Positions 4,922 through 36,682 of a stretch of 53,878 nt of DNA are shown here, one piece after another. Every line of letters starts with the position of its first letter. Within the stretch, counting starts at the first letter, position 1. This stretch comes from a virus. The position numbers and the translations under genes are program-made. Location: IMG/VR virus record IMGVR_UViG_3300013232_000048; one strand, written 5' to 3'. The notes under the pieces were generated by a model that was given only the letters and a program-made list of their open reading frames with translations, was not told the origin of the DNA and ran no database searches.

Positions 4922-5350
4922 ATGAAGTTCAATTCGAAAAGTGTTACATTAAATCGAGGCGTCAATGTGATGCATCCAGTACAGTTACCTTCTGCATTGA
5001 CTACCTATAATATTCCAGAAGATATATGGGACGAATCCATTGTGAGGTTTAACAAAGAACTTGATGCACGTTCTCAAGTATCTGAGATTGTTAATGGTAT
5101 TAAAGTAGATGTTCTTCGGATTAAACGTGCGATGGGAAATGTTATTCTTTGGATGACCGCCAAAGAACATGATGTAGCGACCATCGAAGCGTTGACTTTT
5201 ACATTAAAGGGGCAACTTGTTTTTGAAAATGAAAAATCTGACGCAGTGGAAAAACTACTTATCAACGATTTATTCTGTGGAGTACTGGCGTATGGGCTGC
5301 CGAACGATGGGATGAAAAGTATCTTTCGCAAAAAAGACTTGACATCTTGA
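4922..5350 (+). CDS. hypothetical protein
   Basis: 142-aa ORF that ends 30 nt before the tmRNA-like gene. Confidence 0.45.
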   Translation: MKFNSKSVTLNRGVNVMHPVQLPSALTTYNIPEDIWDESIVRFNKELDARSQVSEIVNGIKVDVLRIKRAMGNVILWMTAKEHDVATIEALTFTLKGQLVFENEKSDAVEKLLINDLFCGVLAYGLPNDGMKSIFRKKDLTS

Positions 5351-5380
5351 GTAACTTCTGGCATATTTATAGACATCAGT

Positions 5381-5785
5381 GGGGCCGTAATGGTCTCGAT
5401 TAAGTTCTTTGACTATAGAGAGTACGTAGAGGTTGATCATCTGGCCTCTTAAAAAGAAGATCAAAAAATCAACAGCCAACCGTATTAACGCACTGGCCTC
5501 GATCAACTTTGAGTTCGACATGAACGAAGAGTTGGTTACTGAAGAACTGGCGACAGTTTAACTTTGGTAAGTAGGAATAGATTCTCGCTATAAACCTATT
5601 GAGTAAGCAGCGAGGAAAACTGCTGGTAGTTCTAATTACCAGACTGATTCGAAAAGCCAGTATGCTGATCTATGTCCGACAGTTTGCTCATTTGTCATGC
5701 GGACGAATAAAAAAATGAGATAAACGTATAGTGCTCTGTAGAATAAGTATTTAACACCCGGGTTCGATTCCCGGCGGCTCCACCA
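5381..5785 (+). ncRNA. ssrA: tmRNA (ssrA-like), about 405 nt with encoded CCA
   Basis: The 5' end GGGGCCGTAATGGTCTCGAT resembles the E. coli tmRNA 5' end GGGGCUGAUUCUGGAUUCGAC. The 3' end GGGTTCGATTCCCGGCGGCTCCACCA resembles GGGUUCAACUCCCGCCAGCUCCACCA. The 7-bp acceptor GGGGCCG/CGGCTCC has one G-U pair. An internal ORF-like tag ends ...EELATV-TAA. Confidence 0.75.
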
Positions 5786-5835
5786 CTTCTCTTGTTTTAT
5801 TCCTTTCTTTCGCCATATTTATTCTATGTACTATT

Positions 5836-23148: not shown

Positions 23149-23225
23149 GCTGGTGTAGTCCAATGGAAGGAGACAAGCGACTTAAAATCGCTACAGTGCG
23201 GGTTCGAGTCCCGCTACCAGCACCA
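23149..23225 (+). tRNA. tRNA, class I body with anticodon UAA (a Leu-decoding anticodon); CCA encoded
   Basis: Acceptor GCTGGTG/TACCAGC. The anticodon stem AGCGA/TCGCT is perfect with loop CTTAAAA. T-arm is GCGGG-TTCGAGT-CCCGC. The variable loop is short. Confidence 0.6.
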
Positions 23226-23227
23226 AT

Positions 23228-23312
23228 GGCCGTGTGGATAAGGGAAGCAGGTACAACCGGAAGTCCTAAAAACTTCTATCCTATGTGGGTTCGAATCCCT
23301 CCACGGCTACCA
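23228..23312 (+). tRNA. tRNA, long (85 nt), putative anticodon UAA; arm assignment unresolved
   Basis: Acceptor GGCCGTG/CACGGCT and canonical T-loop TTCGAAT. The stem GAAGT/ACTTC with loop CCTAAAA is the likely anticodon arm. It is a paralog of the tRNA at 29420. Confidence 0.45.
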
Positions 23313-23501
23313 CTTTATGGAAAAAACCGATACATTACTATTAGATTGGTTTGATCAAGGAGAAGTTATTGATAAAATACATCAAGTAGAATGGATTGTG
23401 TTACATAAAAAGATAAGTGTGCGAGACGCCATTAAAAGATGTCTTGAATTCGAAGATGAGATTACATAATTTTTCAGATTATAAAAAGCCAGAAAAACTG
23501 C

Positions 23502-23531
23502 TTGACATTTTCGTGGGTTTGTCCTATACTT
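23502..23531 (+). promoter_or_regulatory. sigma70-like promoter (TTGACA-N18-TATACT)
   Basis: TTGACAttttcgtgggtttgtccTATACT sits upstream of the OMP gene, and the SD AAAGAGAAAG precedes its ATG. Confidence 0.45.
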
Positions 23532-23594
23532 ATCCACGATATAGTAGCCTTGTAAAGTAATGGGCTACAAAACAACCAAAAGAGAAAGAAAACT

Positions 23595-24155
23595 ATGAAG
23601 AAATTCACAAAATTGTTCGTTGGCGTGTTTTGCGCCGTGTTACTTGCAACCTCGGCATTTGCTGCTGATAAGGTAGTAAAGGCAACCAATGCTCCGGTCG
23701 CCGTAGAAACAGTGAAAGCTGCTCCGGCTCCTGAAGCATGGGTACTAACTCTTGGTGGAGTTGGAAATACGGTAACAACCTCGGGTGGAGATACCGCATT
23801 TGGTGTGGATCTGAGCTTGGGTCGCACTGGGCATTTGCTTCTGCCGCTTGAAGCTGGTGTTCGTCAAAGTGTATCCTACAGTGATGGAGATACTACATTG
23901 AATACTCGTCTGTATAGTGACTGGACGCTGTTTACTGTTGTCAAAAAGGTTGACGTGTTTACCGGCGTAGCTGTTGGTGTTCAATATGGGAACCAAAATC
24001 CATCGTGGGAATTGGCTCCTGAAGCCGGTGTAAGATGGTGGCTTAAGAAGGATGTTGCCGCTGTTGCTCGGGCTGAGTTTCCATTTGCCATTGATGACAG
24101 TTGGAAATACAAGGACGACGTTCGTTATTTCCTTGGCTTCGCAGTGAAGTTCTAA
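23595..24155 (+). CDS. outer-membrane beta-barrel protein (OmpW/OmpA-like fold)
   Basis: Signal peptide MKKFTKLFVGVFCAVLLATSAFA, alternating amphipathic beta-strands rich in G/Y/W, and a C-terminal ...GFAVKF ending in Phe. Confidence 0.65.
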   Translation: MKKFTKLFVGVFCAVLLATSAFAADKVVKATNAPVAVETVKAAPAPEAWVLTLGGVGNTVTTSGGDTAFGVDLSLGRTGHLLLPLEAGVRQSVSYSDGDTTLNTRLYSDWTLFTVVKKVDVFTGVAVGVQYGNQNPSWELAPEAGVRWWLKKDVAAVARAEFPFAIDDSWKYKDDVRYFLGFAVKF

Positions 24156-24216
24156 ACAGATTTGCGGAGCAATTCGCAAATGGTGGAGGGTAACGCTCTT
24201 TGAGCTATCGCCCCTA

Positions 24217-24247
24217 GCGAGTGGCCTTCGGGTCACTCGTTTTTATG
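24217..24247 (+). terminator. rho-independent terminator
   Basis: CGAGTGGCCTTCGGGTCACTCG followed by TTTTTAT, directly after the OMP gene. Confidence 0.5.
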
Positions 24248-24295
24248 TACATTATCGGCTTGACAAAAAGTATTATTTGTGGTATGGTGTGTCCA

Positions 24296-24487
24296 ATGAA
24301 GAAAACGACTAAACATAACATCTACGAAGTGTGGTGTGATTATACTGCGTCCAGTGTGTTTCTTGATCATAAACCCACCAAAAAAGAAGTAGAAGAAATT
24401 CGCCGTAAACAATGGCCAGGATCTGATCAATGGGATATTCCATACAAGATTATTGTATTTAAGCTGAAACCTTTTTATACAAAATGA
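24296..24487 (+). CDS. hypothetical small protein
   Basis: The promoter-like TTGACAaaaagtattatttgtggTATGGT at 24260-24288 precedes the ORF MKKTTKHNIYEVWCDY.... Confidence 0.35.
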   Translation: MKKTTKHNIYEVWCDYTASSVFLDHKPTKKEVEEIRRKQWPGSDQWDIPYKIIVFKLKPFYTK

Positions 24488-24723
24488 GTAAATATGTTGA
24501 CCCAAAATCGGTTAAGATGATTGACCTTGTTAAGGATAACAAGAAGGTTCGATTTTCTTGTTTTCGTGATGGAGAGTTCTGGTATGAGCATGAGGATGGC
24601 CTTTTGTTTCCAATCGCACTGAGCGAAATCACTGCAAGTAGAGTTATATTACTTGCCGAGGACAAAGCGATTTACTTTATGCGGTGGATGAAGAAATACA
24701 TCGCCGCATCTAAGGAAACATAA
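24484..24723 (+). CDS. hypothetical protein
   Basis: 79-aa ORF with an ATGA overlap. Confidence 0.4.
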   Translation: MSKYVDPKSVKMIDLVKDNKKVRFSCFRDGEFWYEHEDGLLFPIALSEITASRVILLAEDKAIYFMRWMKKYIAASKET

Positions 24724-24725
24724 GT

Positions 24726-25127
24726 ATGATTGCATACATTAGTGGGCATTTGGATTTGAAAGTTGAAGAGTTTGACCAGCATTATGGCTCTTTAATAAGA
24801 GAAGCGGTTAAACGTGGGGATACTTTTGTTGTTGGGGATGCCAGGGGTACTGATACGATGGCATTGCAATACTTAATACCTCAAAAGCCATTGGGGGTTA
24901 CTTTGTACCATATGTTTGTCAAACCTAGAACCCCCGAACATGTACTGATGGCTATTACAAACCAACTCAACTTGAAAATAGTCGGTGGTTTCAAATCGGA
25001 TGAAGAGCGTGATGCGGCGATGACGGCGGCAAGTGATTATGATATTGCTTGGGTGCGTCCTGGTAGAGAAAAATCTGGTACAGCAAAAAACATTGCAAGG
25101 AGAGCAAAATGTCAAATGACGAAATGA
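24726..25127 (+). CDS. second SLOG/DprA-like Rossmann protein (YpsA-like)
   Basis: 133 aa. TFVVGDARGTDTMALQYL resembles the SGGARGID/DprA-LOG motif, and a second glycine-rich strand is present. Confidence 0.45.
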   Translation: MIAYISGHLDLKVEEFDQHYGSLIREAVKRGDTFVVGDARGTDTMALQYLIPQKPLGVTLYHMFVKPRTPEHVLMAITNQLNLKIVGGFKSDEERDAAMTAASDYDIAWVRPGREKSGTAKNIARRAKCQMTK

Positions 25128-25257
25128 GTAATGAAGAATTTCGTAAGTATGCCGAAGAAGTTTTTCCATTTCGGGTAGATAAAAGATGGGACAGTGTTGA
25201 TGATTGGATAAAGTATGGTGATATGTTTGTTAATTTGAGTATGCCAGACGATCCAAA

Positions 25258-25452
25258 ATGAAAGTGTTACGTAAAACAATCAAGTGGCTAATTGACTGGG
25301 ATGGTAAGAACAACCTAGTAGAGATTGAAACTACTGAAGATGGAAGAGAGTTTGTCTCCGTGAAACCGCTGACACGTCCTATTGGATTAGTGTTTTATTT
25401 AGATGGAATGGGAAAACGTTTTGATTTGTTTTATGACAGCCGAAATCAATAG
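25258..25452 (+). CDS. hypothetical small protein
   Basis: 64-aa ORF. Confidence 0.3.
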   Translation: MKVLRKTIKWLIDWDGKNNLVEIETTEDGREFVSVKPLTRPIGLVFYLDGMGKRFDLFYDSRNQ

Positions 25453-25501
25453 GGGACATTATTTTGTATCCTTTTCATATTTTCAATGATATTTATACCA
25501 T

Positions 25502-26242
25502 ATGAGAATAAATATGGAAGGACAACGATTTGGGCGTTTGTTAGTTGAAAAATTCAAAGGACAATCAAAAGATAGAAAGGCATTGTGGGAATGTTTGTGT
25601 GATTGTGGTAAGACTACAATCGTAAGAGGAAAACATTTACGGCGTGGCCAAATTGTAAGTTGTGGATGTTATCGTCGTGAAAAAGTGACGGAAGCACTTT
25701 TCAAAAACTTGACGGGAAAGCAATTTGGAAGATTAGTTGCTACGAAAATAGATAAAAATGTTCGTGGATGTTATTTTTGGGAATGCCTTTGTGATTGCGG
25801 TAAAAAAGTAATAGTTGCTGGCAATAAACTTACTTTTGGGCATACCCGAAGCTGTGGATGTCTTGCAAGAGAGATGGCATCTAAACATTTTAAGGCATTG
25901 TGTAAAATCCAAAAGGGAAAAAATCATCCACGATGGAATCCAAATATAACTAATGAAGAAAGACGAGAACGAATAGAACGAAAACGACAAGAATTTCGAG
26001 AATTAAAATGGAGAAATATGGTTTATGTTAGAGATAAATATACCTGTCAAAAATGTGGAGATTGTCGTGGAGGAAATCTTAATGCTCATCATATTTTCTC
26101 ATGGAAAGATTATCGAAAGTTGCGGTATGTAGAATCTAATGGGATAACTTTTTGTGAGGAATGTCATAAAAAGTTTCACGAAATAAATGGTTATGGAAAT
26201 AACACAAGAAAACAACTTACAGATTACATGCAAATTGTGTAA
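25502..26242 (+). CDS. HNH homing endonuclease with duplicated Cys4 zinc modules
   Basis: Two repeats, CLCDCGK...SCGC, followed by YTCQKCGDC...NAHHIFSW...N...FCEECHKKFH, the HNH motif. Confidence 0.75.
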   Translation: MRINMEGQRFGRLLVEKFKGQSKDRKALWECLCDCGKTTIVRGKHLRRGQIVSCGCYRREKVTEALFKNLTGKQFGRLVATKIDKNVRGCYFWECLCDCGKKVIVAGNKLTFGHTRSCGCLAREMASKHFKALCKIQKGKNHPRWNPNITNEERRERIERKRQEFRELKWRNMVYVRDKYTCQKCGDCRGGNLNAHHIFSWKDYRKLRYVESNGITFCEECHKKFHEINGYGNNTRKQLTDYMQIV

Positions 26243-26504
26243 TATGCCAGCACCAACAAGGAAACATCATCTTATTCCTCGGTGTAAAAAAGGAACTGAA
26301 ACGATTGATTGCTGTGAAACGTGTGAAAGCTATTTACATCGTCAATGGACTCATAATCAGCTTCGGGACACATACAATTCGGTAGAAGTAATCTTAGCAG
26401 ATGCCGGATTTCAAAAGTTTTTGAAATGGCGTCGTAAACAACCCGCCTCGGCGTTATTCAAATCAAGTCCAGGCAAATTTAGAGACAAACATCCATATCA
26501 TTGA
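26187..26504 (+). CDS. small HNH-like nuclease
   Basis: CKLCNMPAPTRKHHLIPRCKKG...DCCETCESYLHRQW. It is compact with a His-His plus Cys4 pattern. Confidence 0.45.
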   Translation: MVMEITQENNLQITCKLCNMPAPTRKHHLIPRCKKGTETIDCCETCESYLHRQWTHNQLRDTYNSVEVILADAGFQKFLKWRRKQPASALFKSSPGKFRDKHPYH

Positions 26505-26505
26505 T

Positions 26506-26769
26506 ATGAGGTTAACCATACCTATTCATTATGTCTATATTGTAAAGTGTGCCGATGGCACATTATACACGGGTTATACGATGGACTTGGATAAAAGGGT
26601 AGCCACTCATAACAAAGGTAAAGGAGCAAAGTACACCAAGCCAAGATTACCAGTGACGCTGGTGTATTTCGAAGAATATGAATTTCCTGGGGACGCTAAA
26701 AGGCGTGAGCATGCTATCAAACGATTGACCCGAAACCAAAAACTGATACTTATTTGTGCCCATGAATGA
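26506..26769 (+). CDS. GIY-YIG nuclease domain protein
   Basis: VYIVKCADGTLYTGYTMDLDKRVATHNKGKGAKYTK ... FEEYEF...REHAIKRL contains the GIY...YIG, Arg and Glu motifs. Confidence 0.8.
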   Translation: MRLTIPIHYVYIVKCADGTLYTGYTMDLDKRVATHNKGKGAKYTKPRLPVTLVYFEEYEFPGDAKRREHAIKRLTRNQKLILICAHE

Positions 26770-27082
26770 TATTTGCGAGGAATGTAAAGGTAAGTGCTGT
26801 CAAGGCATTATTGATGTTTATTCATCAGACGAAATTTTCTATGACGAGACATTAGTATGCGAAGCGGAAGACACCAAATATGATCGACAGATGCAAACGG
26901 TAGAAAACAATCGTTGTATTGCCTTGAAAGATGGAAAGTGTACCATTTATGAGAAGCGTCCTCAAGTATGTCGTTTGTTTGAAGTGGGAAATCGTTGCTG
27001 TGAGAATTTTCGCACGGGGCATTTGAATGCTCATACGTGCTTTCCGTGTCCCATAAGTGAAAGGGTATTATGCTTAATTTAA
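26756..27082 (+). CDS. Cys-rich hypothetical protein
   Basis: 108 aa with CEECKGKCC...C..C......C.C. Confidence 0.4.
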   Translation: MPMNDICEECKGKCCQGIIDVYSSDEIFYDETLVCEAEDTKYDRQMQTVENNRCIALKDGKCTIYEKRPQVCRLFEVGNRCCENFRTGHLNAHTCFPCPISERVLCLI

Positions 27083-27420
27083 CTGATTACCAATGGAATT
27101 CTTTGTTTGACGAAGTTGACAAAACTGTTATCAAAGCTCAAGATGATTTGCCCGAACCAGTTCGCAAAGAGGCGGAGAAGATTGAAGTCATTGTAGATAA
27201 GTATCAGTTTCCAATTGACCAGTGGAAGTACGTGAAGGTTTTGGGTTGTTATATGGCGTGGACGAATGGACCTATTGCCATTTTTGCCGGTCAGATTTAC
27301 GAAGACTGCCATCAGGATATGGAAGTGGCGATGGCCTCGGTGAGACAGATTTATTATCACGAACTGGCACACGCCATTGGTGACTTGGGAGAACTGGAAG
27401 TAAAAGAACGAGGATTGTGA
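27070..27420 (+). CDS. putative HExxH metallopeptidase-like protein
   Basis: 116 aa with IYYHELAHAIGD, a zincin-type HExxH motif. Confidence 0.35.
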   Translation: MLNLTDYQWNSLFDEVDKTVIKAQDDLPEPVRKEAEKIEVIVDKYQFPIDQWKYVKVLGCYMAWTNGPIAIFAGQIYEDCHQDMEVAMASVRQIYYHELAHAIGDLGELEVKERGL

Positions 27421-27455
27421 TTGTTTTTTGTTAATAACCCGATATTTATACCTGT

Positions 27456-27941
27456 ATGAATATAAAGATTCAAGCTATTCTGATAAAAACAGCCAGAGAA
27501 CTTGTTAAACTTGGTTGGTCGCCCGACTCCGACTATGAGATTACAGTTAAATCCGAAGGACAAGTGCCCTTAACAAAACAAATTGGAGTCGAGGGAATAC
27601 TAGAAGATGAAACATGGCAAGATCACGTTGAAACGAATATTCATTTGAAACTTTCGTCTGATGATGAGTTAACATATTTTCCATCTTATACTGTTTATGC
27701 CAGTATCAGACTTGAAGGAGTGCCGCCAAAAGATATTGCTTATGGCCTAGACGCCGATGTGGCGTTTACTGAGAAAGATGCTCGTGATGACGCCAAGATA
27801 TCCATGGCAGGCAAGAAAATTGATCGTATGGTTCAAAACTACATTGAACAACAGTTTGGGGATTATGTAGATATGAACGCAGCGCAAATTATCAACTATA
27901 AACAGGGTGGCGGAATTCCTGATCAAGACTTGGAGCGTTAA
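27456..27941 (+). CDS. hypothetical protein
   Basis: 161-aa acidic ORF. Confidence 0.45.
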   Translation: MNIKIQAILIKTARELVKLGWSPDSDYEITVKSEGQVPLTKQIGVEGILEDETWQDHVETNIHLKLSSDDELTYFPSYTVYASIRLEGVPPKDIAYGLDADVAFTEKDARDDAKISMAGKKIDRMVQNYIEQQFGDYVDMNAAQIINYKQGGGIPDQDLER

Positions 27942-27946
27942 AAGTA

Positions 27947-27975
27947 CTTGACAATTTTACGGGATGTGATATAGT
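27947..27975 (+). promoter_or_regulatory. sigma70-like promoter (TTGACA-N17-TATAGT) driving the tRNA array
   Basis: TTGACAattttacgggatgtgaTATAGT. Confidence 0.5.
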
Positions 27976-28032
27976 GTGTTCGTAAAGTGAAGTTGGGATT
28001 TGGCACAAGAAGAAAAAAGTGCGAAATAATCG

Positions 28033-28061
28033 TTGACAAGACGATATGTATGTGATAGAGT
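28033..28061 (+). promoter_or_regulatory. second sigma70-like promoter (TTGACA-N17-TAGAGT)
   Basis: TTGACAagacgatatgtatgtgaTAGAGT, about 90 nt upstream of the first tRNA. Confidence 0.5.
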
Positions 28062-28149
28062 GGTCGTAGTAATGGCTGATTCGTTCAATAGTAGGACGGG
28101 ATCCTCATAAGGTCAAAACACTGGGGCAGAACCAGTATCAGCTACCAAT

Positions 28150-28223
28150 GCGGATGTAGCACAATGGCAGTGCAGGACGTTGCCAACGTTCATACGAGGG
28201 TTCGATTCCCTTCATCCGCTCCA
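28150..28223 (+). tRNA. tRNA-Gly(GCC)
   Basis: Acceptor GCGGATG/CATCCGC. Anticodon stem GGACG/CGTTC with loop TTGCCAA. T-arm GAGGG-TTCGATT-CCCTT. CCA encoded. Confidence 0.7.
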
Positions 28224-28236
28224 ATTTGATAGATGT

Positions 28237-28293
28237 GCGGGCGTGGCGCATATTCCAAAGCGTCTGAAGGATTAAGTTCCTATTCCCGCTCCA
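28237..28293 (+). pseudogene. truncated tRNA-like fragment
   Basis: It ends TTCCCGCTCCA-ATTT like the neighbouring tRNAs but is only about 57 nt long, and no full cloverleaf could be drawn. Confidence 0.3.
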
Positions 28294-28315
28294 ATTTAGT
28301 TGTTCTTTGTAATTT

Positions 28316-28389
28316 GCACTGTTGACATATTGGCCGTGTTTCAGCCTTCCAAGCTGACCAAGCGGGTTCGATTCCCGCACAGTGCTCCA
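28316..28389 (+). tRNA. tRNA-Gly(UCC)
   Basis: Acceptor GCACTGT/ACAGTGC. Anticodon stem TCAGC/GCTGA with loop CTTCCAA. T-arm GCGGG-TTCGATT-CCCGC. Confidence 0.7.
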
Positions 28390-28493
28390 AGTTTGGAAAT
28401 AGAACAGAAGTCGGTAGAAAGTACCGTGAGAGTCGTGGAGAATGGGCGTAACTCTGATCAAGTTGTGCTAAGGTGATCCATTATTTCCAAAAT

Positions 28494-28569
28494 GCGATAC
28501 TGGTGTTCAATGGCAGCATGAGACTCTTCCAAAGTCCCGGTACGGGTTCGACTCCCGTGTATCGCTCCA
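28494..28569 (+). tRNA. tRNA, probable Gly(UCC) second copy (anticodon loop CTTCCAA)
   Basis: Acceptor GCGATAC/GTATCGC. T-arm ACGGG-TTCGACT-CCCGT. The anticodon stem is 4 bp plus a mismatch. Confidence 0.55.
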
Positions 28570-28586
28570 GATTTGTTCTTTGAAAT

Positions 28587-28660
28587 GCCGAATTGATGTA
28601 ATGGTAGCCTATTACTTTGGTAAAGTAAATGTTCGGGTTCGATTCCCGGATTCGGCTCCA
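28587..28660 (+). tRNA. tRNA-Thr(GGU) (GUA/Tyr is a less likely alternative)
   Basis: Acceptor GCCGAAT/ATTCGGC. Anticodon stem TTACT/AGTAA with loop TTGGTAA (U33, A37). T-arm TCGGG-TTCGATT-CCCGG. Confidence 0.6.
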
Positions 28661-28668
28661 AATTTTAT

Positions 28669-29226
28669 TTGTTTTTTGATACTCCTAACACTATTTATAG
28701 GTATAGAGTGATAGGATACTGTATGAAATGTGAAATTTGTAAGAATGAGTTAACAAAACGTTATCAAAAACGTTTTTGCAGCCAACTGTGTGCAAGTAAA
28801 GCGAGAATAGTTGTAAGATATTGTAAACAATGCAATGTTCAATTGCAACCTAACACAAAGCAAAGAACATATTGTAGCAAAGTGTGTCAACAAGCTTTTC
28901 AGAGGAAAAGTATTCATAAACAAATTGAAAGCGGAGGTTATGAGTGCGTATATTCTGGAAATAAATTTCTTCGCAACTATCTCATAGAAATTCGAGGAGA
29001 AAAATGCGAAGAGTGTGGATTGTCAGAATGGATTGGAAATAAAATTCCATTGACGGTTCATCATATTGATGGTAATGCGGAAAATAATGTACCATCCAAT
29101 ATGCAATTGATGTGTTGGAATTGTCATGCATTGACTGATAATTATGGGAGAAAAAATAAAATTTCTGCCCGTGATTATAGATATAAAAATGCCCCTATAG
29201 CTCATGGTGAGCCGGTGGTCTTATAA
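28669..29226 (+). CDS. HNH homing endonuclease with N-terminal zinc-ribbon repeats
   Basis: CEICKNE...FCSQLCASKA...YCKQC...YCSKVCQQAF followed by CEECG...HHIDGN...N...LMCWNCH. Its 3' end overlaps the 5' part of the next tRNA. Confidence 0.8.
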   Translation: MFFDTPNTIYRYRVIGYCMKCEICKNELTKRYQKRFCSQLCASKARIVVRYCKQCNVQLQPNTKQRTYCSKVCQQAFQRKSIHKQIESGGYECVYSGNKFLRNYLIEIRGEKCEECGLSEWIGNKIPLTVHHIDGNAENNVPSNMQLMCWNCHALTDNYGRKNKISARDYRYKNAPIAHGEPVVL

Positions 29227-29283
29227 GCCACTTAATCGCTAGATTGGCGTAAGGTGAAGGTTCGATTCCTTCTAGGGGTACCA
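29191..29283 (+). tRNA. class II (93-nt) tRNA with apparent anticodon UAU; identity unclear
   Basis: Acceptor GCCCCTA/TAGGGGT, D-arm TAGCTCATGGTGAGC, anticodon stem GTGGT/GCCAC with loop CTTATAA, a 24-nt variable region, and T-arm GAAGG-TTCGATT-CCTTC. Confidence 0.5.
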
Positions 29284-29342
29284 GATTTTGTATAACACCG
29301 TCATTCGGTGAGGAAGAACAGAGGATGACGGAGAAATGCAGA

Positions 29343-29366
29343 GAAGAAGAAGAAGAAGAAGAAGAA
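29343..29366. repeat. (GAA)8 microsatellite
   Basis: gaagaagaagaagaagaagaagaa lies between two tRNA genes. Confidence 0.9.
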
Positions 29367-29419
29367 GTAGAGGATACATCGGTGGCGGTGTTATACTATT
29401 TTAGAGTTCTTTTTTGAAT

Positions 29420-29504
29420 GCCTATGTGGATAAGGGAAACTGGTACAACCGTAAGTTTCAAAAACTTATATCCGTTGCACGTTCGAATCGAGCCATAGGT
29501 ACCA
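29420..29504 (+). tRNA. tRNA, long (85 nt), putative anticodon CAA; paralog of the tRNA at 23228
   Basis: Acceptor GCCTATG/CATAGGT. The stem TAAGT/ACTTA with loop TTCAAAA is the likely anticodon arm. T-arm GCACG-TTCGAAT-CGAGC. Confidence 0.45.
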
Positions 29505-29509
29505 TTTAT

Positions 29510-29689
29510 ATGATACCGAAGTTTGTAAACATTGTTAAAGTAATAGCGACAGTTCAATGTCTCAATGCGGGTCAGTCAATAGATCAAGTAGCTGCATCTG
29601 CAAAATTATCGCCGCAGCAGATTAGAGGGATGTTAAGAGCAGCAGGTTTTCGGAAAAGTCTGAGAACTGGTAAGTGGTTAATACATTGA
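29510..29689 (+). CDS. small HTH-like protein (the track ORF 29414-29689 overlaps the tRNA and is trimmed here)
   Basis: ...QSIDQVAASAKLSPQQIRGMLRAAGF is helix-turn-helix-like. Confidence 0.3.
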   Translation: MIPKFVNIVKVIATVQCLNAGQSIDQVAASAKLSPQQIRGMLRAAGFRKSLRTGKWLIH

Positions 29690-29707
29690 TTGTTCTTTGT
29701 TAGAGAT

Positions 29708-29781
29708 GCCGGGTTAGTATAAAAGTATTACAGTAGTTTTGTAAACTTCAAAAGTCGGGGCAGTACCGACACTCGGCTCCA
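29708..29781 (+). tRNA. tRNA-Thr(UGU)-like with non-canonical T-loop GGCAGTA
   Basis: Acceptor GCCGGGT/ACTCGGC. The anticodon arm GTAGT-TTTGTAA-ACTTC has one mismatch. T-arm GTCGG-GGCAGTA-CCGAC. It is a paralog of the tRNA at 29847, with a compensatory swap in the first pair of the anticodon stem. Confidence 0.5.
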
Positions 29782-29846
29782 ATTTGATACGAAATTAGAA
29801 CAAACAGTAATTGTAAAATGAAATTTGAACTATCAGTAGTATCTAT

Positions 29847-29920
29847 GCCAGATTGATGTAAAAGTAGCCTGCAAGTTTCGTAAACTTGATGCGTCGGGGC
29901 AGTACCGATATCTGGCTCCA
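29847..29920 (+). tRNA. tRNA-Thr(CGU)-like with non-canonical T-loop GGCAGTA
   Basis: Acceptor GCCAGAT/ATCTGGC. Anticodon arm CAAGT-TTCGTAA-ACTTG. T-arm GTCGG-GGCAGTA-CCGAT. Confidence 0.55.
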
Positions 29921-30124
29921 ATTTGCTACTTAAAACACCGATAATCGGTGCGATAAATAGCATTGTTTTAACATGTCGGAGTAGGCTCTAAGCGGAGTCA
30001 AAAGTTGTAACTGAATATGTTGTCCATCCACCCCTGTTCAGTGAGAAATGACGAAGTGATACGACACCCTTGAGAATGGACTTGGGGAACAGAACTGATA
30101 TCAAGTACTGACTGTTATGTTGAT

Positions 30125-30195
30125 GTCTCGTTAGTTCAGTGGCAGAACAGACCATTGATAAAGGTCAGACGTTGGCTCTAATCCAACACGAGAAT
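30125..30195 (+). tRNA. tRNA-Ile(GAU)-like; T-loop CTCTAAT; no encoded CCA
   Basis: D-arm TAGTTCAGTGGCAGAAC. Anticodon arm GACCA-TTGATAA-AGGTC. Acceptor GTCTCGT/ACGAGAA with a mismatch at 1-72. Confidence 0.5.
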
Positions 30196-30197
30196 AT

Positions 30198-30283
30198 GCA
30201 CCGTTAGACAAGTGGGAAGTCCGAAGTCTGCAAAACTGCTATTGAGTTGGTTCGATTCCAACACGGTGCTCCAAGATTTTTTC
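30198..30283 (+). tRNA. tRNA-Cys(GCA) (probable)
   Basis: Acceptor GCACCGT/ACGGTGC. Anticodon arm GAAGT-CTGCAAA-ACTGC with one A-G mismatch. T-arm GTTGG-TTCGATT-CCAAC. CCA encoded. Confidence 0.55.
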
Positions 30284-30292
30284 AGAAAGATG

Positions 30293-30321
30293 TTGACATC
30301 TTGCATCGGTTCTGGTAGAGT
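30293..30321 (+). promoter_or_regulatory. sigma70-like promoter (TTGACA-N17-TAGAGT)
   Basis: TTGACAtcttgcatcggttctggTAGAGT. There is no long ORF before the terminator at 30536. Confidence 0.4.
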
Positions 30322-30535
30322 ATGCGGCGTAAGATGAAAATCGGATAAGAAATCCGAGCGAAAAGAAAAGTTGAACAGTATTTATTGATAACAGTATGAA
30401 ACGACAATCACAACATTGGTTTAGACTCTCGGATGCTCTTGCATCCCTTGCAAAGAGTGTCTATATCAATGATCGCCCAGAAGGAAAAGGCTCTTGATGT
30501 AACGTACTTACATACTTACACCAAAGAGCCGACCA

Positions 30536-30562
30536 AAAGGTCGGTTTTTTTGTTGGGAAAAT
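30536..30562 (+). terminator. rho-independent terminator
   Basis: GAGCCGACCaaaaGGTCGG followed by TTTTTTT. Confidence 0.7.
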
Positions 30563-30566
30563 AGTT

Positions 30567-30755
30567 ATGAAAGCAAATGTGGAGTTGGTAAGTGTGACGG
30601 TGAAGATAAATGGTGTAGAAAAGACATTTGCCAAAAAAGATTGTTGGTTTCACGGATGGGAATGGTCAAATGAAGATATCATGGAATGTGATAGTGGAGT
30701 AGATTTAGAGTTGACAGAAGGTAAGAAACGGTATAAGCTGTCTGTAGAAGGTTAG
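30567..30755 (+). CDS. hypothetical small protein
   Basis: 62-aa ORF lying between the terminator and the next promoter. Confidence 0.35.
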   Translation: MKANVELVSVTVKINGVEKTFAKKDCWFHGWEWSNEDIMECDSGVDLELTEGKKRYKLSVEG

Positions 30756-30920
30756 AATTTTGTTGAATAAGGCTTTTAGAAAAGTTATGAGCCTTTGAAA
30801 AATCAAAACTTCCGTAGAGGCGTTCCACGGAATAGGATATAACGTGTGATTTATCACACCACGCCGGTATCACGAGGGATCGTGGTGCTACCAACGCAGG
30901 TGAACAATCCATTATTATGT

Positions 30921-30949
30921 TGACATACATGGTAATATAGGGTATAGTT
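30921..30949 (+). promoter_or_regulatory. sigma70-like promoter (TTGACA-N17-TATAGT)
   Basis: TTGACAtacatggtaatatagggTATAGT, upstream of the HNH gene at 30955. Confidence 0.45.
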
Positions 30950-30954
30950 AGGTC

Positions 30955-31401
30955 ATGTATAGTGCAACAAGCATGTTGGCAAAAGCTAAAGACAATAATA
31001 TTCTTCCTGTAAGAAGAAACAATTTCTATTATAGGGAGGTTTATCTTAAAAGTGATCACTGGAAACTTTTGAGAGAAGAAAAACTTAATAGAAATCCTAC
31101 TTGTCAACAATGTGGGTCTTCGGTTTGTTTAGATGTTCATCACAAAGACTATCGGGGACTTTATGATGTTAGGTTAAATGATTTACAAACGTTATGTCGA
31201 AAATGTCATAATAAAAAGCACAAGCGAAAGGACCATAAAAAACCCAAGAGAAACTTGATTGAGCGTATAAAATGGCACGCCGAAGGATATGGAAATCCAG
31301 TCAAATTAACTGCACGCAACAAAGAAAGACAAGAAGTGTTCGACAAGATGGTTAATTGGAGATGTAGAGACATAAACACTTACATTTCTATTCATTATTA
31401 A
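30955..31401 (+). CDS. HNH homing endonuclease
   Basis: CQQCGSSVCLDVHHKDYRG...ND..TLCRKCHNKKHK. Confidence 0.75.
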   Translation: MYSATSMLAKAKDNNILPVRRNNFYYREVYLKSDHWKLLREEKLNRNPTCQQCGSSVCLDVHHKDYRGLYDVRLNDLQTLCRKCHNKKHKRKDHKKPKRNLIERIKWHAEGYGNPVKLTARNKERQEVFDKMVNWRCRDINTYISIHY

Positions 31402-31416
31402 AAACAATTTCAGTAT

Positions 31417-31502
31417 GCAGTCGTGAGCCGAGTTGGTCGAAGGCACCAGACTTTTAATCTGGTATTCAAACATCGTGGGTTCGAATCCCACCGGCTGCAC
31501 CA
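31417..31502 (+). tRNA. class II tRNA with a Ser-type D-arm but anticodon UUU
   Basis: Acceptor GCAGTCG/CGGCTGC. The D-arm AGCCGAGTTGGTCGAAGGC resembles the bacterial tRNA-Ser D-arm GCCGAGCGGTTGAAGGC. Anticodon arm CCAGA-CTTTTAA-TCTGG. A 12-nt variable region has no obvious stem. T-arm GTGGG-TTCGAAT-CCCAC. Confidence 0.55.
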
Positions 31503-31510
31503 ATTTCAAT

Positions 31511-31584
31511 AGGTAGTTCGTATAATGGTATTATGGGACTCTCCAAAAGTTTTGATGTGGGTTCGATTCCTACACTACCTGCCA
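31511..31584 (+). tRNA. tRNA-Trp(CCA) (probable)
   Basis: Acceptor AGGTAGT/ACTACCT. Anticodon arm GGACT-CTCCAAA-AGTTT with two G-U pairs. T-arm GTGGG-TTCGATT-CCTAC. Confidence 0.5.
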
Positions 31585-31724
31585 ATTTCATTCAGAAACG
31601 AAACTTGTTAGCTGATAACCTCAAATATGTGGTATGTCCCATCCAACTGCCATAACATATTGAGCTAGGACAAAGTTGCCTTGGAGAAGCAGCGGTAATG
31701 TCAGTTTTCTGAATACGACTTTAT

Positions 31725-31800
31725 GGTGGTATTGGTGTAATGGTTAGCACTAGAGTTTGTGGAACTCTCAGCGCCGGTTCGACTCCGGTATATCACCCCA
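31725..31800 (+). tRNA. tRNA-His(GUG) with genomically encoded G-1
   Basis: G-1 pairs with C73 (GGTGGTAT...ATATCAC-C-CCA). Anticodon arm AGAGT-TTGTGGA-ACTCT. T-arm GCCGG-TTCGACT-CCGGT. Confidence 0.65.
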
Positions 31801-31911
31801 ATTTCTAGGATACTCATTTGTCGGGTACCCTAGCGGAATGAGATAGACACCCTAGTAGGGCACGAACGGGGGGGAACAATCCGTGAAATCCTCAGAAAGC
31901 TATTTCAAAAT

Positions 31912-31988
31912 GCGTCGAAAGCTACAGTGGACCGGCACCCGGCTCTTACCCGGATATGGTTGGGTTTCAACTACCCATCGGCGCACCA
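31912..31988 (+). tRNA. tRNA-Lys(CUU)
   Basis: Acceptor GCGTCGA/TCGGCGC. Anticodon arm CCCGG-CTCTTAC-CCGGA with a 27-43 mismatch. T-arm TGGGT-TTCAACT-ACCCA. Confidence 0.5.
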
Positions 31989-31995
31989 ATTTCTG

Positions 31996-32442
31996 TTAGT
32001 AAACTCCCGGAAGTCCAGCTTTAACCAGTGCGGTTTGAATAGCATCGATGATTCCAATACAAACTTCTGGGCGATCAGCTTCGATAGCATTATTGAAAAC
32101 TGTAATAAATGATGCTGGTTCATAGCCAACAATTTTAGCAAGAGCCGAAGATTCTGCTTCAATGGTATAGAGATTATTTAATTTGAGCGTGTAATAAGCA
32201 GTTCCAATTTTTCGCAAAGTAGTTGGATCGGGACCAATCATGGCATCAACAATGGCTTTTACATCTTCCGCAGCTTTTTTAGCGACATCGGATTCTGCTG
32301 AAGGCAAAGTTACTGGTGAAGTTACTGATGGTGGAGTTACAACAACTCCATCACAGGAAACTGTCATTTTGAAAACGTCTCCTTTTGGTCCAGTGAAACT
32401 GAGAGTAAGAGGTTCGTTGAGTTTGATATCGAATGTATTCAT
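31996..32442 (-). CDS. hypothetical protein (the only minus-strand gene inside the tRNA array)
   Basis: 148-aa ORF that is Ala/Val/Thr-rich, with an FTGPKGDVFKMTVSCDG beta-rich N-terminus. Confidence 0.5.
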   Translation of the reverse strand: MNTFDIKLNEPLTLSFTGPKGDVFKMTVSCDGVVVTPPSVTSPVTLPSAESDVAKKAAEDVKAIVDAMIGPDPTTLRKIGTAYYTLKLNNLYTIEAESSALAKIVGYEPASFITVFNNAIEADRPEVCIGIIDAIQTALVKAGLPGVY

Positions 32443-32519
32443 TTTTGTCCTATGGTTAAGTGTTCTCCAATAAATAGAACTTTAACCTTTATTCTATAGA
32501 AAAAGTTTTACTTAAGTAT

Positions 32520-32593
32520 TCCCTCTTGTTGTAATGGAAGCAAGTTTGGCTTTGAACCAAAAAGCGGTGGATCGATACCATCAGAGGGAGCCA
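32520..32593 (+). tRNA. tRNA-Gln(UUG); T-loop ATCGATA
   Basis: Acceptor TCCCTCT/AGAGGGA (U1-A72, typical of tRNA-Gln). Anticodon arm TTTGG-CTTTGAA-CCAAA. T-arm GGTGG-ATCGATA-CCATC. Confidence 0.6.
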
Positions 32594-32686
32594 ATTTGAA
32601 AGAGAAAGACAGTATATGTCAAATAGCGAGTGAACTCGGTCAATATAGTAATGGATTTTTGTGTTTGAGGACACAACTCTTTCAAT

Positions 32687-32760
32687 CGGGGTATGGCGTA
32701 ATAGTAGCGTGCGTGTTTTGGGGACATGAGGCGACTGAGCATAACAGTCTATCCCGACCA
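32687..32760 (+). tRNA. tRNA-Pro(UGG); T-loop AGCATAA
   Basis: Acceptor CGGGGTA/TATCCCG. Anticodon arm CGTGT-TTTGGGG-ACATG (G37). T-arm GACTG-AGCATAA-CAGTC. Confidence 0.55.
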
Positions 32761-32764
32761 TTTT

Positions 32765-32821
32765 AAGATACAGACAGCAACCAAACCAAATTCATCTGTT
32801 AAATGAAAAAAACTGTATCTT
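32765..32821 (+). repeat. IR element family member a (AAGATACAG ... CTGTATCTT)
   Basis: 9-bp perfect inverted repeat flanking ACAGCAACCAAACCAAA... It starts 4 nt after a tRNA 3' end and is followed by GTTTTT. Confidence 0.6.
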
Positions 32822-32828
32822 GTTTTTC

Positions 32829-32902
32829 GGTCTATTGTTGAATGGGTATCATAGAATCCTGTCACGATTCAGTAACGAGTTCAAGCCTCGTATAGACCGC
32901 CA
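32829..32902 (+). tRNA. tRNA-Asp(GUC)
   Basis: Acceptor GGTCTAT/ATAGACC with G73. Anticodon arm GAATC-CTGTCAC-GATTC. T-arm ACGAG-TTCAAGC-CTCGT. Confidence 0.7.
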
Positions 32903-32999
32903 TTTTATAGAGGGTTTGGCAGTATAACCTGTGCGCTAACTGGGTAACTGCAAGTCAAGATAGACTTCAATGGAACTTCCGTGAAATCCTTAATGCATC

Positions 33000-33073
33000 C
33001 GTCCTGTAGCTCAATAGCAGAGCATTCGACTGATAATCGAAAGACAGTGGGGCAGTACCACTCTGGACGACCA
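33000..33073 (+). tRNA. tRNA-Ile(GAU); T-loop GGCAGTA
   Basis: Acceptor CGTCCTG/CTGGACG with one mismatch. D-arm TAGCTCAATAGCAGAGC. Anticodon arm TTCGA-CTGATAA-TCGAA. T-arm AGTGG-GGCAGTA-CCACT. Confidence 0.6.
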
Positions 33074-33247
33074 TTTTAACCTCGGTATGATGGATATGTT
33101 AATATGTAACCTACTCCCGCATGGGAAGCGTAGCCCTACTACGAGTCATGCGGTTAAAGGTATTAAATACAGAGAACATAACTGTAAAGGGCATACTGAA
33201 AATCCTCTAAGGTAAACGAGGTTGACACTCGGGAATAGACCGGGATT

Positions 33248-33691
33248 TTGATTTGGGTTGCACTATTTATTGATATGGGTAACATTGCGACATTTCTGAG
33301 AGAGTTGGCTACATATCAATCCAATCATTATGGATATTATGATAGGTCTGTTTTGGTGAACGCCTATGATAACTTGCCCGTGGGAATTAAAAAGTATTTG
33401 ACACCCAACGAAAAACATCTCAAGCGTTTATGGCGTGGATGCGATGGCCTTTCCGAAATGAGAGCTATTTCATTTACAACAAACAGAGGAATAGCACATT
33501 TGTTTGGCGCTTATGTTATTCCTTTCAGTGAATTAATCAGTTATGGCGGATTGATTAGTACTGAAATGGCAAGAAAGTTGAATAAACGGTTGGGGTTTGA
33601 TCTTGGCATTGGGGATGATGAAGGAGAAGTTGTTATTATTCGCCCGCAATGGAATAAAGATTTGAATTTGAGACAGTATTTTGTTGGATAA
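33248..33691 (+). CDS. hypothetical protein
   Basis: 147-aa ORF. Confidence 0.45.
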   Translation: MIWVALFIDMGNIATFLRELATYQSNHYGYYDRSVLVNAYDNLPVGIKKYLTPNEKHLKRLWRGCDGLSEMRAISFTTNRGIAHLFGAYVIPFSELISYGGLISTEMARKLNKRLGFDLGIGDDEGEVVIIRPQWNKDLNLRQYFVG

Positions 33692-33692
33692 T

Positions 33693-33768
33693 GCGTTGCT
33701 GGTGAAATTGGATATCATAAAAGATTACGAATCTTTTGTTCCGGGTTCGAGTCCCGGGTGGCGCACCA
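33693..33768 (+). tRNA. tRNA-Arg(ACG)
   Basis: D-arm GGTGAAATTGGATATCAT is shared with the other Arg tRNAs. Anticodon arm AAAGA-TTACGAA-TCTTT. T-arm CCGGG-TTCGAGT-CCCGG. The acceptor has 3 G-U pairs. Confidence 0.55.
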
Positions 33769-33836
33769 CTTTGAGATATTGATGAAGGTAAAGGCCAATA
33801 TGAAAAAGGATTGGACGAGAATAATCAGTATCTTAC

Positions 33837-33911
33837 GGCCCATTCGTCTAACAGCTAGGACAATAGATTCTCAATCTATAAACACCGGGGCAGCACCGGT
33901 ATGGGCTACCA
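33837..33911 (+). tRNA. tRNA-Glu(CUC)-like; T-loop GGCAGCA
   Basis: Acceptor GGCCCAT/ATGGGCT. Anticodon arm ATAGA-TTCTCAA-TCTAT. T-arm ACCGG-GGCAGCA-CCGGT. Confidence 0.5.
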
Positions 33912-33915
33912 ATTT

Positions 33916-33990
33916 CGCCATATGATGTAAATGGAAACATGAACTCTTGATGAGGGTTTCTTACAGGTTCGACTCCTGTTGTGGCGACCA
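33916..33990 (+). tRNA. tRNA with anticodon GAU (Ile-like; loop TTGATGA)
   Basis: Acceptor CGCCATA/TGTGGCG. Anticodon arm AACTC-TTGATGA-GGGTT. T-arm ACAGG-TTCGACT-CCTGT. Confidence 0.5.
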
Positions 33991-34053
33991 AATATAAATA
34001 ATCTAAACCACAAATACTCGCTATTCTACATATGATGGGCGATATTTATTGGT

Positions 34054-34635: not shown

Positions 34636-34636
34636 T

Positions 34637-34722: not shown

Positions 34723-34730
34723 AGTTTATT

Positions 34731-35120: not shown

Positions 35121-35125
35121 ATTTT

Positions 35126-35770: not shown

Positions 35771-35794
35771 ACTTAATCACTTTCGTGATGGTAA

Positions 35795-36528: not shown

Positions 36529-36529
36529 T

Positions 36530-36675: not shown

Positions 36676-36682
36676 ACTTTAC

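Follow-up and report, generated by a model that had tools for sequence, protein, structure and literature searches.

From the IMG/VR virus record IMGVR_UViG_3300013232_000048 we analyzed a stretch of 53,878 nucleotides (nt), referred to here as the window, and examined a putative gene for transfer-messenger RNA (tmRNA; ssrA) at positions 5381 to 5785. We consider it probable, at roughly 85%, that this region encodes a functional one-piece tmRNA of a clade of large uncultivated phages, with contigs of up to 312 kb, and that it is not a bacterial ssrA. Our verdict on the mechanism is that it would be ordinary trans-translation with a long tag peptide specific to the lineage. The evidence comes from covariance-model matches, compensatory base changes among relatives, the coding signature of the tag reading frame, and the recurrence of the gene in one genomic position.

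Detection of the tmRNA gene

The Rfam model RF00023 matched the plus strand of the window over positions 1 to 374 of its 374 (102.4 bits against a gathering score of 47; E = 5.9e-39), with exactly the same coordinates as had been given in an initial annotation made from the sequence without database searches. Both of the tmRNA-like ends recognized in that annotation were found (5', GGGGCCGTAATGGTCTCGAT; 3', GGGTTCGATTCCCGGCGGCTCCACCA), and the 26-nt 3' end occurred as a single copy in the window, with no copy in any of 100 shuffles. The minimum-free-energy fold of the tmRNA had a z-score of -3.7 relative to shuffled sequences. No match to the permuted model of two-piece (circularly permuted) tmRNAs was observed in the window, and the match to the one-piece model was colinear and full-length. 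Taken on its sequence, the region is a genuine, intact tmRNA gene in which every defining one-piece feature that was tested was found, except a demonstrable third pseudoknot (PK3).

ARAGORN in tmRNA mode, which had been proposed in the initial annotation as a check on the gene and its tag, reported no tmRNA in the window or in a 600-nt sub-window. Across the family of 14 tmRNAs described below, ARAGORN recognized four and missed those of the window, L002, L003, L023, L025 to L028, L034, and L044 (L numbers designate contigs other than the window). The Rfam search with cmscan recovered 13 family members at 83 to 127 bits, and the fourteenth was recovered with an nhmmer profile of the family. 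We regard the ARAGORN result as a false negative of the tool, and relying on it alone would lead to the tmRNA being wrongly dismissed.

RNA structure and covariation

The structure proposed for the window (Table 1), including its pseudoknots, was projected onto a MAFFT alignment of 11 family members, giving 90 base pairs; as controls, the 3' partners were slid by one to three columns, and 500 shuffles were made. Standard pairs occupied 86.1% of cells, compared to 41 to 47% in the slid controls, and 57 of the 90 pairs showed changes on both sides. The covariation score was 0.477 versus 0.09 to 0.14 in the slid controls, and none of the 500 shuffles attained the observed values. All proposed pairs were canonical in the window itself, apart from one U-U pair in the long helix P2.

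Covariation supports the predicted acceptor stem, T-arm, P2, both stems of the first pseudoknot (PK1), stem a of PK2, the first hairpin at the PK3 position (H1), and stem b of PK4. All 11 aligned members carried G3:U70 in the acceptor stem, an identity element for alanine, and compensatory changes were observed at acceptor pairs 4 to 6. PK1, located directly 5' of the tag reading frame, varied between relatives from AGAGG/CCTCT to AGGAG/CTCCT in one stem and from GATC to GGTC/GACC in the other, while helix 10 of PK2 took forms such as TAGG/CCTA, GCGCC/GGCGC, and GTGAAA/TTTCAC. PK2 and PK4 are predicted as clear H-type pseudoknots in the window. Helix 5, the second hairpin at the PK3 position (H2), and stem a of PK4 had lower scores on this non-structural alignment and could be discerned in individual sequences; helix 14 of PK4, for example, scored low on the MAFFT alignment, yet was apparent as GCCGC/GCGGC or GGTATCG/CGGTGCC sequence by sequence. 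The helix 5 hairpin, which consists of the final tag codons and the sequence past the stop, was also predicted by an unconstrained fold, and its family support was weaker (71 to 78% paired) because the stem position shifts among members.

In the initial annotation, either the lack of an Rfam tmRNA hit or a failure of PK1 to PK4 to fold would have counted against the tmRNA. PK1, PK2, and PK4 folded, whereas the PK3 position yielded two hairpins and no clear pseudoknot. H1 showed changes on both sides in six of six pairs, and H2 was poorly aligned and 60% paired. A second PK3 stem was sought, and just a short loop-to-linker pairing was found that was inconsistent among the 14 members. The candidate joins ACTG (5643-5646) to CAGT in the H2 loop (5658-5661) by only 3 to 4 bp; by inspection, such a pairing was present in the window and in about 8 to 9 of the 14 members, with GTG/CAC in L028, and was absent from five. 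PK2 to PK4 are lost, reduced, or dispensable in some natural tmRNAs, and such changes are tolerated in Escherichia coli.

Two relatives showed peculiarities of their own. The tmRNA of L028 (4389-4794) has an atypical T-loop, GGGGGCGGTGCCCC instead of GGTTCGAnTCC, and in that of L024 (4741-5145) the terminal CCA is not encoded, the 3' end reading ...TCCAGTT.

The tag peptide

The Rfam alignment placed the resume codon GCC at position 5475, just past the run AAAAAATCAACA. A Y-A-A-N-N context preceded the resume codon (GCN or GAT) in all 14 members; in E. coli tmRNA, A86 is the chief determinant of the reading frame (PMC2481249), and its counterpart in the window is listed in Table 1. ARAGORN reported the same tag frame in all four members that it detected, and the frame was open in 14 of 14, at 25 to 31 codons. 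The unusually long tag with an EELATV end that had been described in the initial annotation was correct on both counts; the length is a family-wide trait, and the ATV end is unique to the copy in the window.

Substitutions within the tag were those of a coding sequence. Of the first 16 codons, all 16 varied at the third position and 7 at the second, leucine codons alternated between CTT, TTG, TTA, and CTA, and the pooled ratio of nonsynonymous to synonymous variation (pN/pS) was 0.33. This codon-position pattern and pN/pS ratio argue that the peptide itself, besides the RNA, is under selection. Both the RNA structure and the tag frame are therefore under purifying selection across the 14 divergent family members.

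The family tags share the core ANRLNELA[AS][VI]DF[DE]F and have a net charge of -3 to -7, with two to four aromatic residues in 12 of the 14. Six end in LALA, four in LAFA, and one each in LAVA, LAIA, and ALAA. These 13 fit the pattern LA[LFVI]A or ALAA, and the ALAA tag is followed by a double stop. The remaining ending is the LATV of the window, which is hydrophobic and has no final Ala. In E. coli, degradation efficiency falls across tags ending in LVA, AAV, and ASV (PMC11003136), and ATV would accordingly be an attenuated, not a disabled, ending. By this analogy the LATV of the window is best read as a weaker form of the protease signal.

One exact degenerate 29-nt pattern encoding ANRLNELA was searched for among 185,579 species-representative bacterial genomes. 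It returned six matches; neither Rfam nor ARAGORN identified a tmRNA among them, and we therefore attribute them to chance.

The family of relatives and their shared locus

Relatives were recovered through the two genes that flank the tmRNA. A search with the N-terminus of the giant protein encoded downstream yielded two IMG/VR viral contigs and ten metagenome loci, one of which duplicated a viral contig, and at each of these loci Rfam detected a tmRNA directly ahead of the giant gene and in the same orientation. A search with the upstream open reading frame (ORF) added the closest relative, on a 236-kb ENA contig (ERZ27247780 k141_125970), as well as a 312-kb NCBI contig (GCA_040384425.1 JAWVGW010000008.1) and a third IMG/VR contig, all with a tmRNA in the same position; this ORF is also present on the JGI metagenome contig 3300013315 Ga0173609_11100566. 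The window and 13 relatives from viral and metagenome contigs thus gave 14 distinct tmRNAs. The IMG/VR relatives are UViGs 3300033074_001309, 3300019487_000029, and 3300011264_000028. Searches of 50,697 records of deposited phage genomes with the tmRNA (blastn) and 20 kb of the window (megablast) gave no match, a tblastn search of deposited phage genomes with an ADP-ribosylglycohydrolase of the window gave none either, and the lineage appears to be absent from GenBank phages.

The comparison of genome context that had been suggested in the initial annotation revealed the same order, an ORF of about 140 amino acids (aa), the tmRNA, and the giant gene (protein start MAISLKEQL), in every recovered relative. 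The upstream ORF bears no fold resemblance to SmpB. The gap between the tmRNA and the ATG of the giant gene is typically 48 to 53 nt, and 74 nt in L034. No Pfam domain was found in the giant ORF, and a search with residues 251 to 500 of its protein returned no homologues. In L002 it occupies 10001-20743 (3580 aa). A strongly conserved N-terminal block, IPWGGGYGGPKWGAG...DHIYDLQHNTGALLNKG, follows an acidic, proline-rich stretch, and in L003 (10001-16992) and several other relatives the gene is split into ORFs of about 1000 to 1300 aa.

Insertions were observed on both sides of the tmRNA. Four relatives carry a minus-strand endonuclease gene between the tmRNA and the giant gene that is absent from the window; these proteins also have weaker matches to HNH and endonuclease VII families, and in L002, L029, and L028 their genes overlap the tmRNA 3' end by about 35 to 50 nt. 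Three relatives encode a fucosyltransferase-like protein with the motif GGxGNQMFQYA upstream of the tmRNA, assigned to glycosyltransferase family 11 by PF01531 (E = 1e-6) in L023 and L025 and by N-terminal sequence only in L028. Because of these insertions, the adjacency of the three genes is typical, not obligatory.

Promoter and expression signals

A sigma-70-type promoter precedes the tmRNA. Its extended -10 element comprises TG at 5359-5360 and CATATT at 5362-5367, the promoter scored 10 of 12 in a consensus scan with the TG element present, and it ends 13 nt short of the mature 5' end. The transcript would then begin with a leader of about 6 nt, to be cleaved off by RNase P. In 11 of the 14 family members, TTGAC[AT] followed by TGn[CT]ATA[TG]TTAT is found directly ahead of the tmRNA, though the neighboring proteins are just 35 to 50% identical; in L029, L028, and L024 a TATATTTAT element is located about 30 to 45 nt farther upstream. 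A promoter of this type would imply transcription by unmodified host RNA polymerase. No terminator hairpin was found 3' of the tmRNA in the window, and one is present in some relatives.

The window has 10 sites of the nonamer YATATTTAT, an enrichment over the 1.75 expected. Copies precede the tmRNA and the giant gene, the probable ATG of an ORF at 4312, and, with a site at 23132, the first tRNA gene; the nonamer is likely to be a -10-type promoter element of the phage clade. For the ORF at 4312, only 5 nt separate the nonamer from the ATG (8 nt when counted from the TATATT hexamer), which suggests a leaderless mRNA.

Possible recombination at the locus

The tmRNA of the window differs from that of its closest relative, L034, at 38 positions, 29 of which fall within nt 111 to 226 of the gene (window 5491-5606), that is, in the tag ORF and PK2 (Fisher P = 2e-10). 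Outside this segment the two are about 97% identical, and PK1, H1/H2, and PK4 are almost identical. L029 and L028 contain, between the promoter and the real tmRNA (at about 345-400 and about 4335-4388, respectively), a 31-nt relic of a tmRNA 5' end, GGGGCCGACAGGTTTCGATTAAGTTCTTTGG; the acceptor stem of their real tmRNA (GGGGATG or GGGCCTG) differs from that of the relic, suggesting that the tmRNA gene was replaced by recombination. Together with the endonuclease genes that four relatives carry against the 3' end of the tmRNA, the mosaic with L034 and the relics suggest recombination or gene conversion at this locus.

Proposed mechanism and alternative explanations

The steps that we propose follow the established pathway of trans-translation. 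Host RNA polymerase would transcribe the tmRNA without phage factors, probably early in infection, RNase P would remove the short 5' leader, and host alanyl-tRNA synthetase would charge the molecule via G3:U70. Together with host SmpB and EF-Tu, the tmRNA would then enter ribosomes that have stalled on truncated mRNAs; infection is likely to make such mRNAs plentiful. Translation would resume at the GCC codon, append the 28-residue acidic tag, and stop at the TAA, and the ribosomes would be recycled for phage protein synthesis. The tag would most probably mark the incomplete protein for an ATP-dependent host protease, a role suggested by the hydrophobic-alanine or ALAA endings of all family tags but that of the window.

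The initial annotation had offered two readings. The first, a virus-encoded tmRNA alongside the tRNA array, is supported by our results; the second was a chromosomal bacterial ssrA that serves as an integration site, with an integrated element downstream and host DNA upstream. Mobile elements classically integrate at the 3' ends of ssrA genes (PMC9004378), the tmRNA gene here adjoins mobile-element genes as such sites do, and the window yielded no identifiable phage structural gene; even so, we judge this second origin extremely unlikely. Both flanks are inherited together with the tmRNA, in a two-sided synteny that spans 14 distinct tmRNAs and includes three IMG/VR viral contigs, and because the three-part arrangement recurs in every relative, the genes on either side of the tmRNA belong to one element. 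The direct repeat of the 3' end that would mark an attachment site was not found in the window, which was searched with the 26-nt 3' end at up to three mismatches and with all 11- to 16-mers of the tmRNA; the only matches were to the generic T-arm of tRNA genes in the window, and the far border could lie past it. The statement in the initial annotation that no integrase is visible held for the 30 window ORFs scanned, none of which has an integrase domain. Upstream ORFs have neither Pfam domains nor matches to bacterial housekeeping genes, the G+C content is even across the window (0.39 to 0.46), and the tag-coding pattern matches no tmRNA in the bacterial genomes scanned. A different objection is that the gene could be a decaying relic acquired from a host, or a decoy that soaks up SmpB and adds no tag, for which the tRNA-like-domain-only molecule of mycobacteriophage DS6A provides a precedent (PMC4131195). 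The degenerate PK3, the failure of ARAGORN on 10 of 14 members, the aberrant T-loop of L028, the missing CCA of L024, and the loss of the terminal xA from the window tag would all fit such decay. We nevertheless consider it very unlikely: helices are maintained by compensatory changes among relatives as divergent as their neighboring proteins indicate, the window retains canonical pairing throughout apart from the one U-U, the resume-codon context and promoter are conserved, and the tag frame is open in every member with a protein-coding pattern of substitution.

A reading that accepts a working tmRNA and differs on the tag is possible, though we think it unlikely: the long acidic peptide would be a phage-specific signal, recognized by Lon as in Mollicutes, serving to avoid SspB/ClpXP, or addressed to a reader encoded by the phage. 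Its length and charge and the shared core recur in all 14 members, no such tag coding was seen in tmRNAs of the species-representative bacterial genomes, and the concentration of differences from the closest relative in the 116 nt of the tag ORF and PK2 is consistent with it. The only well-studied tags of equal length, those of Mollicutes, are read by Lon and not by ClpXP (PMC8403727, PMC9097571), and four family tags end in LAFA. Yet similarity to the Mollicutes tags is not detectable besides length and ending, the hydrophobic-alanine ends of 13 tags, one of them a canonical ALAA with a double stop, fit ordinary recognition of the C-terminus, and neither a phage protease nor an adaptor was identified in the window. 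The genome scan, moreover, used a single exact degenerate pattern, by which diverged host tags would be missed. Rather doubtful is the bolder version in which the tag is an invention of the phage lineage that redirects the products of rescue (to Lon in place of SspB/ClpXP, or to a phage reader), with the tag and PK2 swapped between related phages as a cassette, aided by the homing-type endonucleases encoded next to the tmRNA 3' end in several relatives.

Several points weigh against a functional tmRNA of a large phage, the reading that we prefer. PK3 could not be demonstrated as a pseudoknot, ARAGORN is blind to the tmRNA of the window, and the function assigned to it is deduced from sequence alone. 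The window tag ends in TV, not in the xA of the family, which makes the strength of its degradation signal uncertain. A Pfam search found no SmpB (PF01668) among the 30 window ORFs, so that the proposed pathway presupposes SmpB from the host. About 45 ORFs were scanned for capsid, portal, terminase, and tail genes, and none was found among those of the window, L002, L003, and L032, which are partial genomes, and the carrier could conceivably be another large extrachromosomal element instead of a phage. The phage label is based on the presence of relatives in IMG/VR, on PHROG matches, and on the homing endonucleases and tRNA array; neighboring genes either have no match or belong to families of phage proteins, among them DprA-like, endonuclease, ADP-ribosylglycohydrolase, and phrog_7313. 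Because no structural or packaging gene was found in the stretches available, "large phage" is the best-supported label, not a proven one.

The tRNA array and other genes in the window

The initial annotation had spoken of about 50 tRNAs; we found about 39, with 33 reported by ARAGORN, 36 by Rfam, and 39 after manual merging. HNH endonuclease genes are interspersed among them, as is typical for homing endonucleases in phage tRNA arrays. The array also contains, on the plus strand, an 851-aa ORF (41668-44223) that has no PHROG match and matches a vault repeat (PF17795) as well as the shoulder domain of the major vault protein (PF11978, E = 1.6e-21); such a vault-protein-like gene is unusual in a phage-like element. 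Separately, an unrelated viral contig, L011 (IMGVR_UViG_3300045988_075249), which also has a tmRNA and a tRNA array, carries a full-length ROOL RNA (RF03087, 350 bits) at 4478-5073 among its tRNA genes.

Table 1. Features of the tmRNA locus and its surroundings in the window, insertions in relatives, and predicted tag peptides of the family. Positions refer to the window unless a contig is named.
Feature	Position	Strand	Remarks
Conserved 142-aa ORF	4922..5350	+	Precedes tmRNA family-wide; not SmpB
Sigma-70-type promoter of tmRNA	5339..5370	+	-35 TTGACA 5339-5344; 17-nt spacer; TGgCATATTTAT with extended -10
tmRNA (ssrA) gene	5381..5785	+	One-piece, 405 nt, 3' CCA encoded; RF00023, fold z-score, family covariation
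Acceptor-stem 5' strand GGGGCCG	5381..5387	+	Pairs with CGGCTCC 5775-5781; ACCA 5782-5785; 7/7 pairs canonical
Long helix P2, 5' strand	5400..5426	+	Partner 5724-5754; helices 2-4 84-100% paired; 19/23 pairs changed on both sides
PK1: AGAGG/CCTCT and TGATC/GATCA	5428..5463	+	Helices 5 and 6 paired 100% and 91%; covariation
Frame-setting context CAACA (Y-A-A-N-N)	5470..5474	+	Directly 5' of resume codon; A at -4 is counterpart of E. coli A86
Tag reading frame	5475..5561	+	Resume codon GCC 5475-5477; 28 codons, ANRINALASINFEFDMNEELVTEELATV; stop TAA 5559-5561
Helix 5: CTGAAG-AACTG, loop GCGA, CAGTT, bulged stop TAA, CTTTGG	5539..5567	+	All window pairs canonical
PK2: GTAGG/CCTAT and TCTCGCT/AGCGAGG	5571..5615	+	Helix 10, 5/5 pairs changed on both sides; helix 11 conserved, 86% paired
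PK3 position: H1 CTGGTA/TACCAG 5623-5642; H2 GAAAAGC/GCTGATC 5651-5670	5623..5670	+	Two hairpins
PK4: GTCCG/CGGAC and CTCATT/AATGAG	5674..5719	+	Helix 15 88% paired, 4/6 pairs changed on both sides; helix 14 64% paired
T-arm CCGGG, loop TTCGATT, CCCGG	5758..5774	+	Helix 16, 96% paired; 3/5 pairs changed on both sides
YATATTTAT sites	435, 4298, 5362, 5814, 23132	+	Five more on minus strand
CATATTTAT motif	5814..5822	+	13 nt upstream of giant-gene ATG; like the -10 element of the tmRNA, without a -35
Giant ORF, 3220 aa	5836..15498	+	Starts 50 nt past tmRNA; N-terminus conserved in all relatives
Other window genes	17108-18202, 20802-21425, 21422-22156, 50549-51028		Listed together with ADP-ribosylglycohydrolase PF03747, DprA-like phrog_768, R2K-clade ATP-grasp PF18299, Dam-type N6-adenine methyltransferase PF05869
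tRNA array, ~39 genes	23149..53401	+	Same strand as tmRNA; interspersed HNH endonuclease genes
HNH endonuclease genes among tRNAs	25502-26242, 28669-29226, 30955-31401, 34054-34635, 37744-38325		
Inserted endonuclease genes	L002 9333-9884, L029 752-1363, L028 4755-5060, L024 5190-5888	-	phrog_3322, E = 1e-18 to 1e-25
Family-11 glycosyltransferase, ~255 aa	L023 3985-4761, L025 4581-5348, L028 3548-4312		Between upstream ORF and tmRNA
Tag, window			ANRINALASINFEFDMNEELVTEELATV
Tag, L034			ANRINELAAVDFEFDMNEEFVSEELAIA
Tag, L003			ANRLAQLASLDFSFEMNEAETELAVA
Tag, L002			ANRLNELAAVDFDFVLTEEVNQSVDAELALA
Tag, L032			ANRLNELAAMDFSFNMNEESVALAA
Tag, L026			ANRLNELASVDFDFALNGDEVEAPVADLAFA
Tag, L022			ANRLNEIAAIAFDFALGEEESVSELALA
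Tag, L023			ANRLNELASVDFDFALGEVEAPVADLAFA
Tag, L025			ANRLNELASVDFDFAFGEVEAPVADLAFA
Tag, L029			ANRLNELASVDCSITLGVEESVDELALA
Tag, L027			ANRLSELASVDFDFALNGDEVEVSAGDLAFA
Tag, L028			ANRLNQLASIDCSITLGEEESIGELALA
Tag, L024			DNRLNELSAINFEFPLGNEEVVSEELALA
Tag, L044			ANRLNELAALDFEFSLNGEAKTELALA

Comparison with known tmRNAs and implications

The tmRNA of the window shares with the one-piece tmRNA of the E. coli type (RF00023) a T-arm, an acceptor stem that contains G3:U70, an encoded 3' ACCA, P2, and the pseudoknots PK1 (just ahead of the tag), PK2, and PK4. Its tag frame likewise has an A at -4, opens with an alanine resume codon and then Asn (AN...), stops within helix 5, and gives the tag a hydrophobic C-terminus. 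It differs in its strongly acidic tag of 28 residues (25 to 31 in the family), compared to 10 to 11 in E. coli, in the two hairpins at the PK3 position, in its phage-like carrier, and in having no adjacent smpB. Unlike ssrA attachment sites, the locus showed no attachment repeat in the window and no integrase among the 30 ORFs scanned, and in viral contigs the tmRNA retains the same neighbors on either side.

Phage tmRNAs are known from Bxz1-group mycobacteriophages and Bacillus phage G (PMC4131195), have been reported in huge metagenomic phages (PMC7162821), and are carried by about 2.3% of 18,146 phage genomes (PMC9004378). Proposed roles are upkeep of the hijacked translation machinery or tagging of proteins for recycling (PMC9004378). 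The window resembles these systems (the Bxz1 group, phage G, huge phages, and Melnitz) in having a complete tmRNA, a large genome, many tRNAs, no integrase, and a presumed role in ribosome upkeep (PMC4131195, PMC7162821, PMC9004378, PMC12484599). The marine phage Melnitz, however, has a two-piece tmRNA, and the window tag is more than twice as long as the 13-residue tag of phage G, AKLNITNNELQVA (PMC12484599). Ten other viral-contig tmRNAs that are read by ARAGORN and have the same 5' 19-mer encode tags of 21 and 26 residues in two cases and of 9 to 11 residues in the rest. Mollicutes tags, which Lon recognizes, have 27 residues, many of them hydrophobic or aromatic, with YAFA at the C-terminus (PMC8403727, PMC9097571). 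The family tags are like those of Mycoplasma pneumoniae and Mesoplasma florum in length, in their mid-tag aromatic and hydrophobic residues, and in their xAFA or xALA ends; they are unlike them in showing no evident sequence similarity, in being far more acidic, and in coming from environmental contigs of about 40% G+C. What is specific to this lineage is the combination of a conserved long acidic tag, a fixed genomic position, and poor recall by ARAGORN (4 of 14).

Because phage tmRNAs were already known, the existence of this one changes little in itself. Ten of the 14 family members are, unlike known phage tmRNAs, invisible to ARAGORN, the tool with which the surveys were made (PMC7162821, PMC9004378), so that counts of phage tmRNAs may be too low; a covariance-model search recovers tmRNAs that ARAGORN misses. 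The long, acidic tag, conserved as a protein, would lend itself to testing how the length and sequence of a tag bear on the fate of rescued proteins in infection. Finally, the fixed position, the host-type promoter, and the endonuclease insertions together give a defined locus at which the upkeep and exchange of translation-support genes in large phages can be studied.

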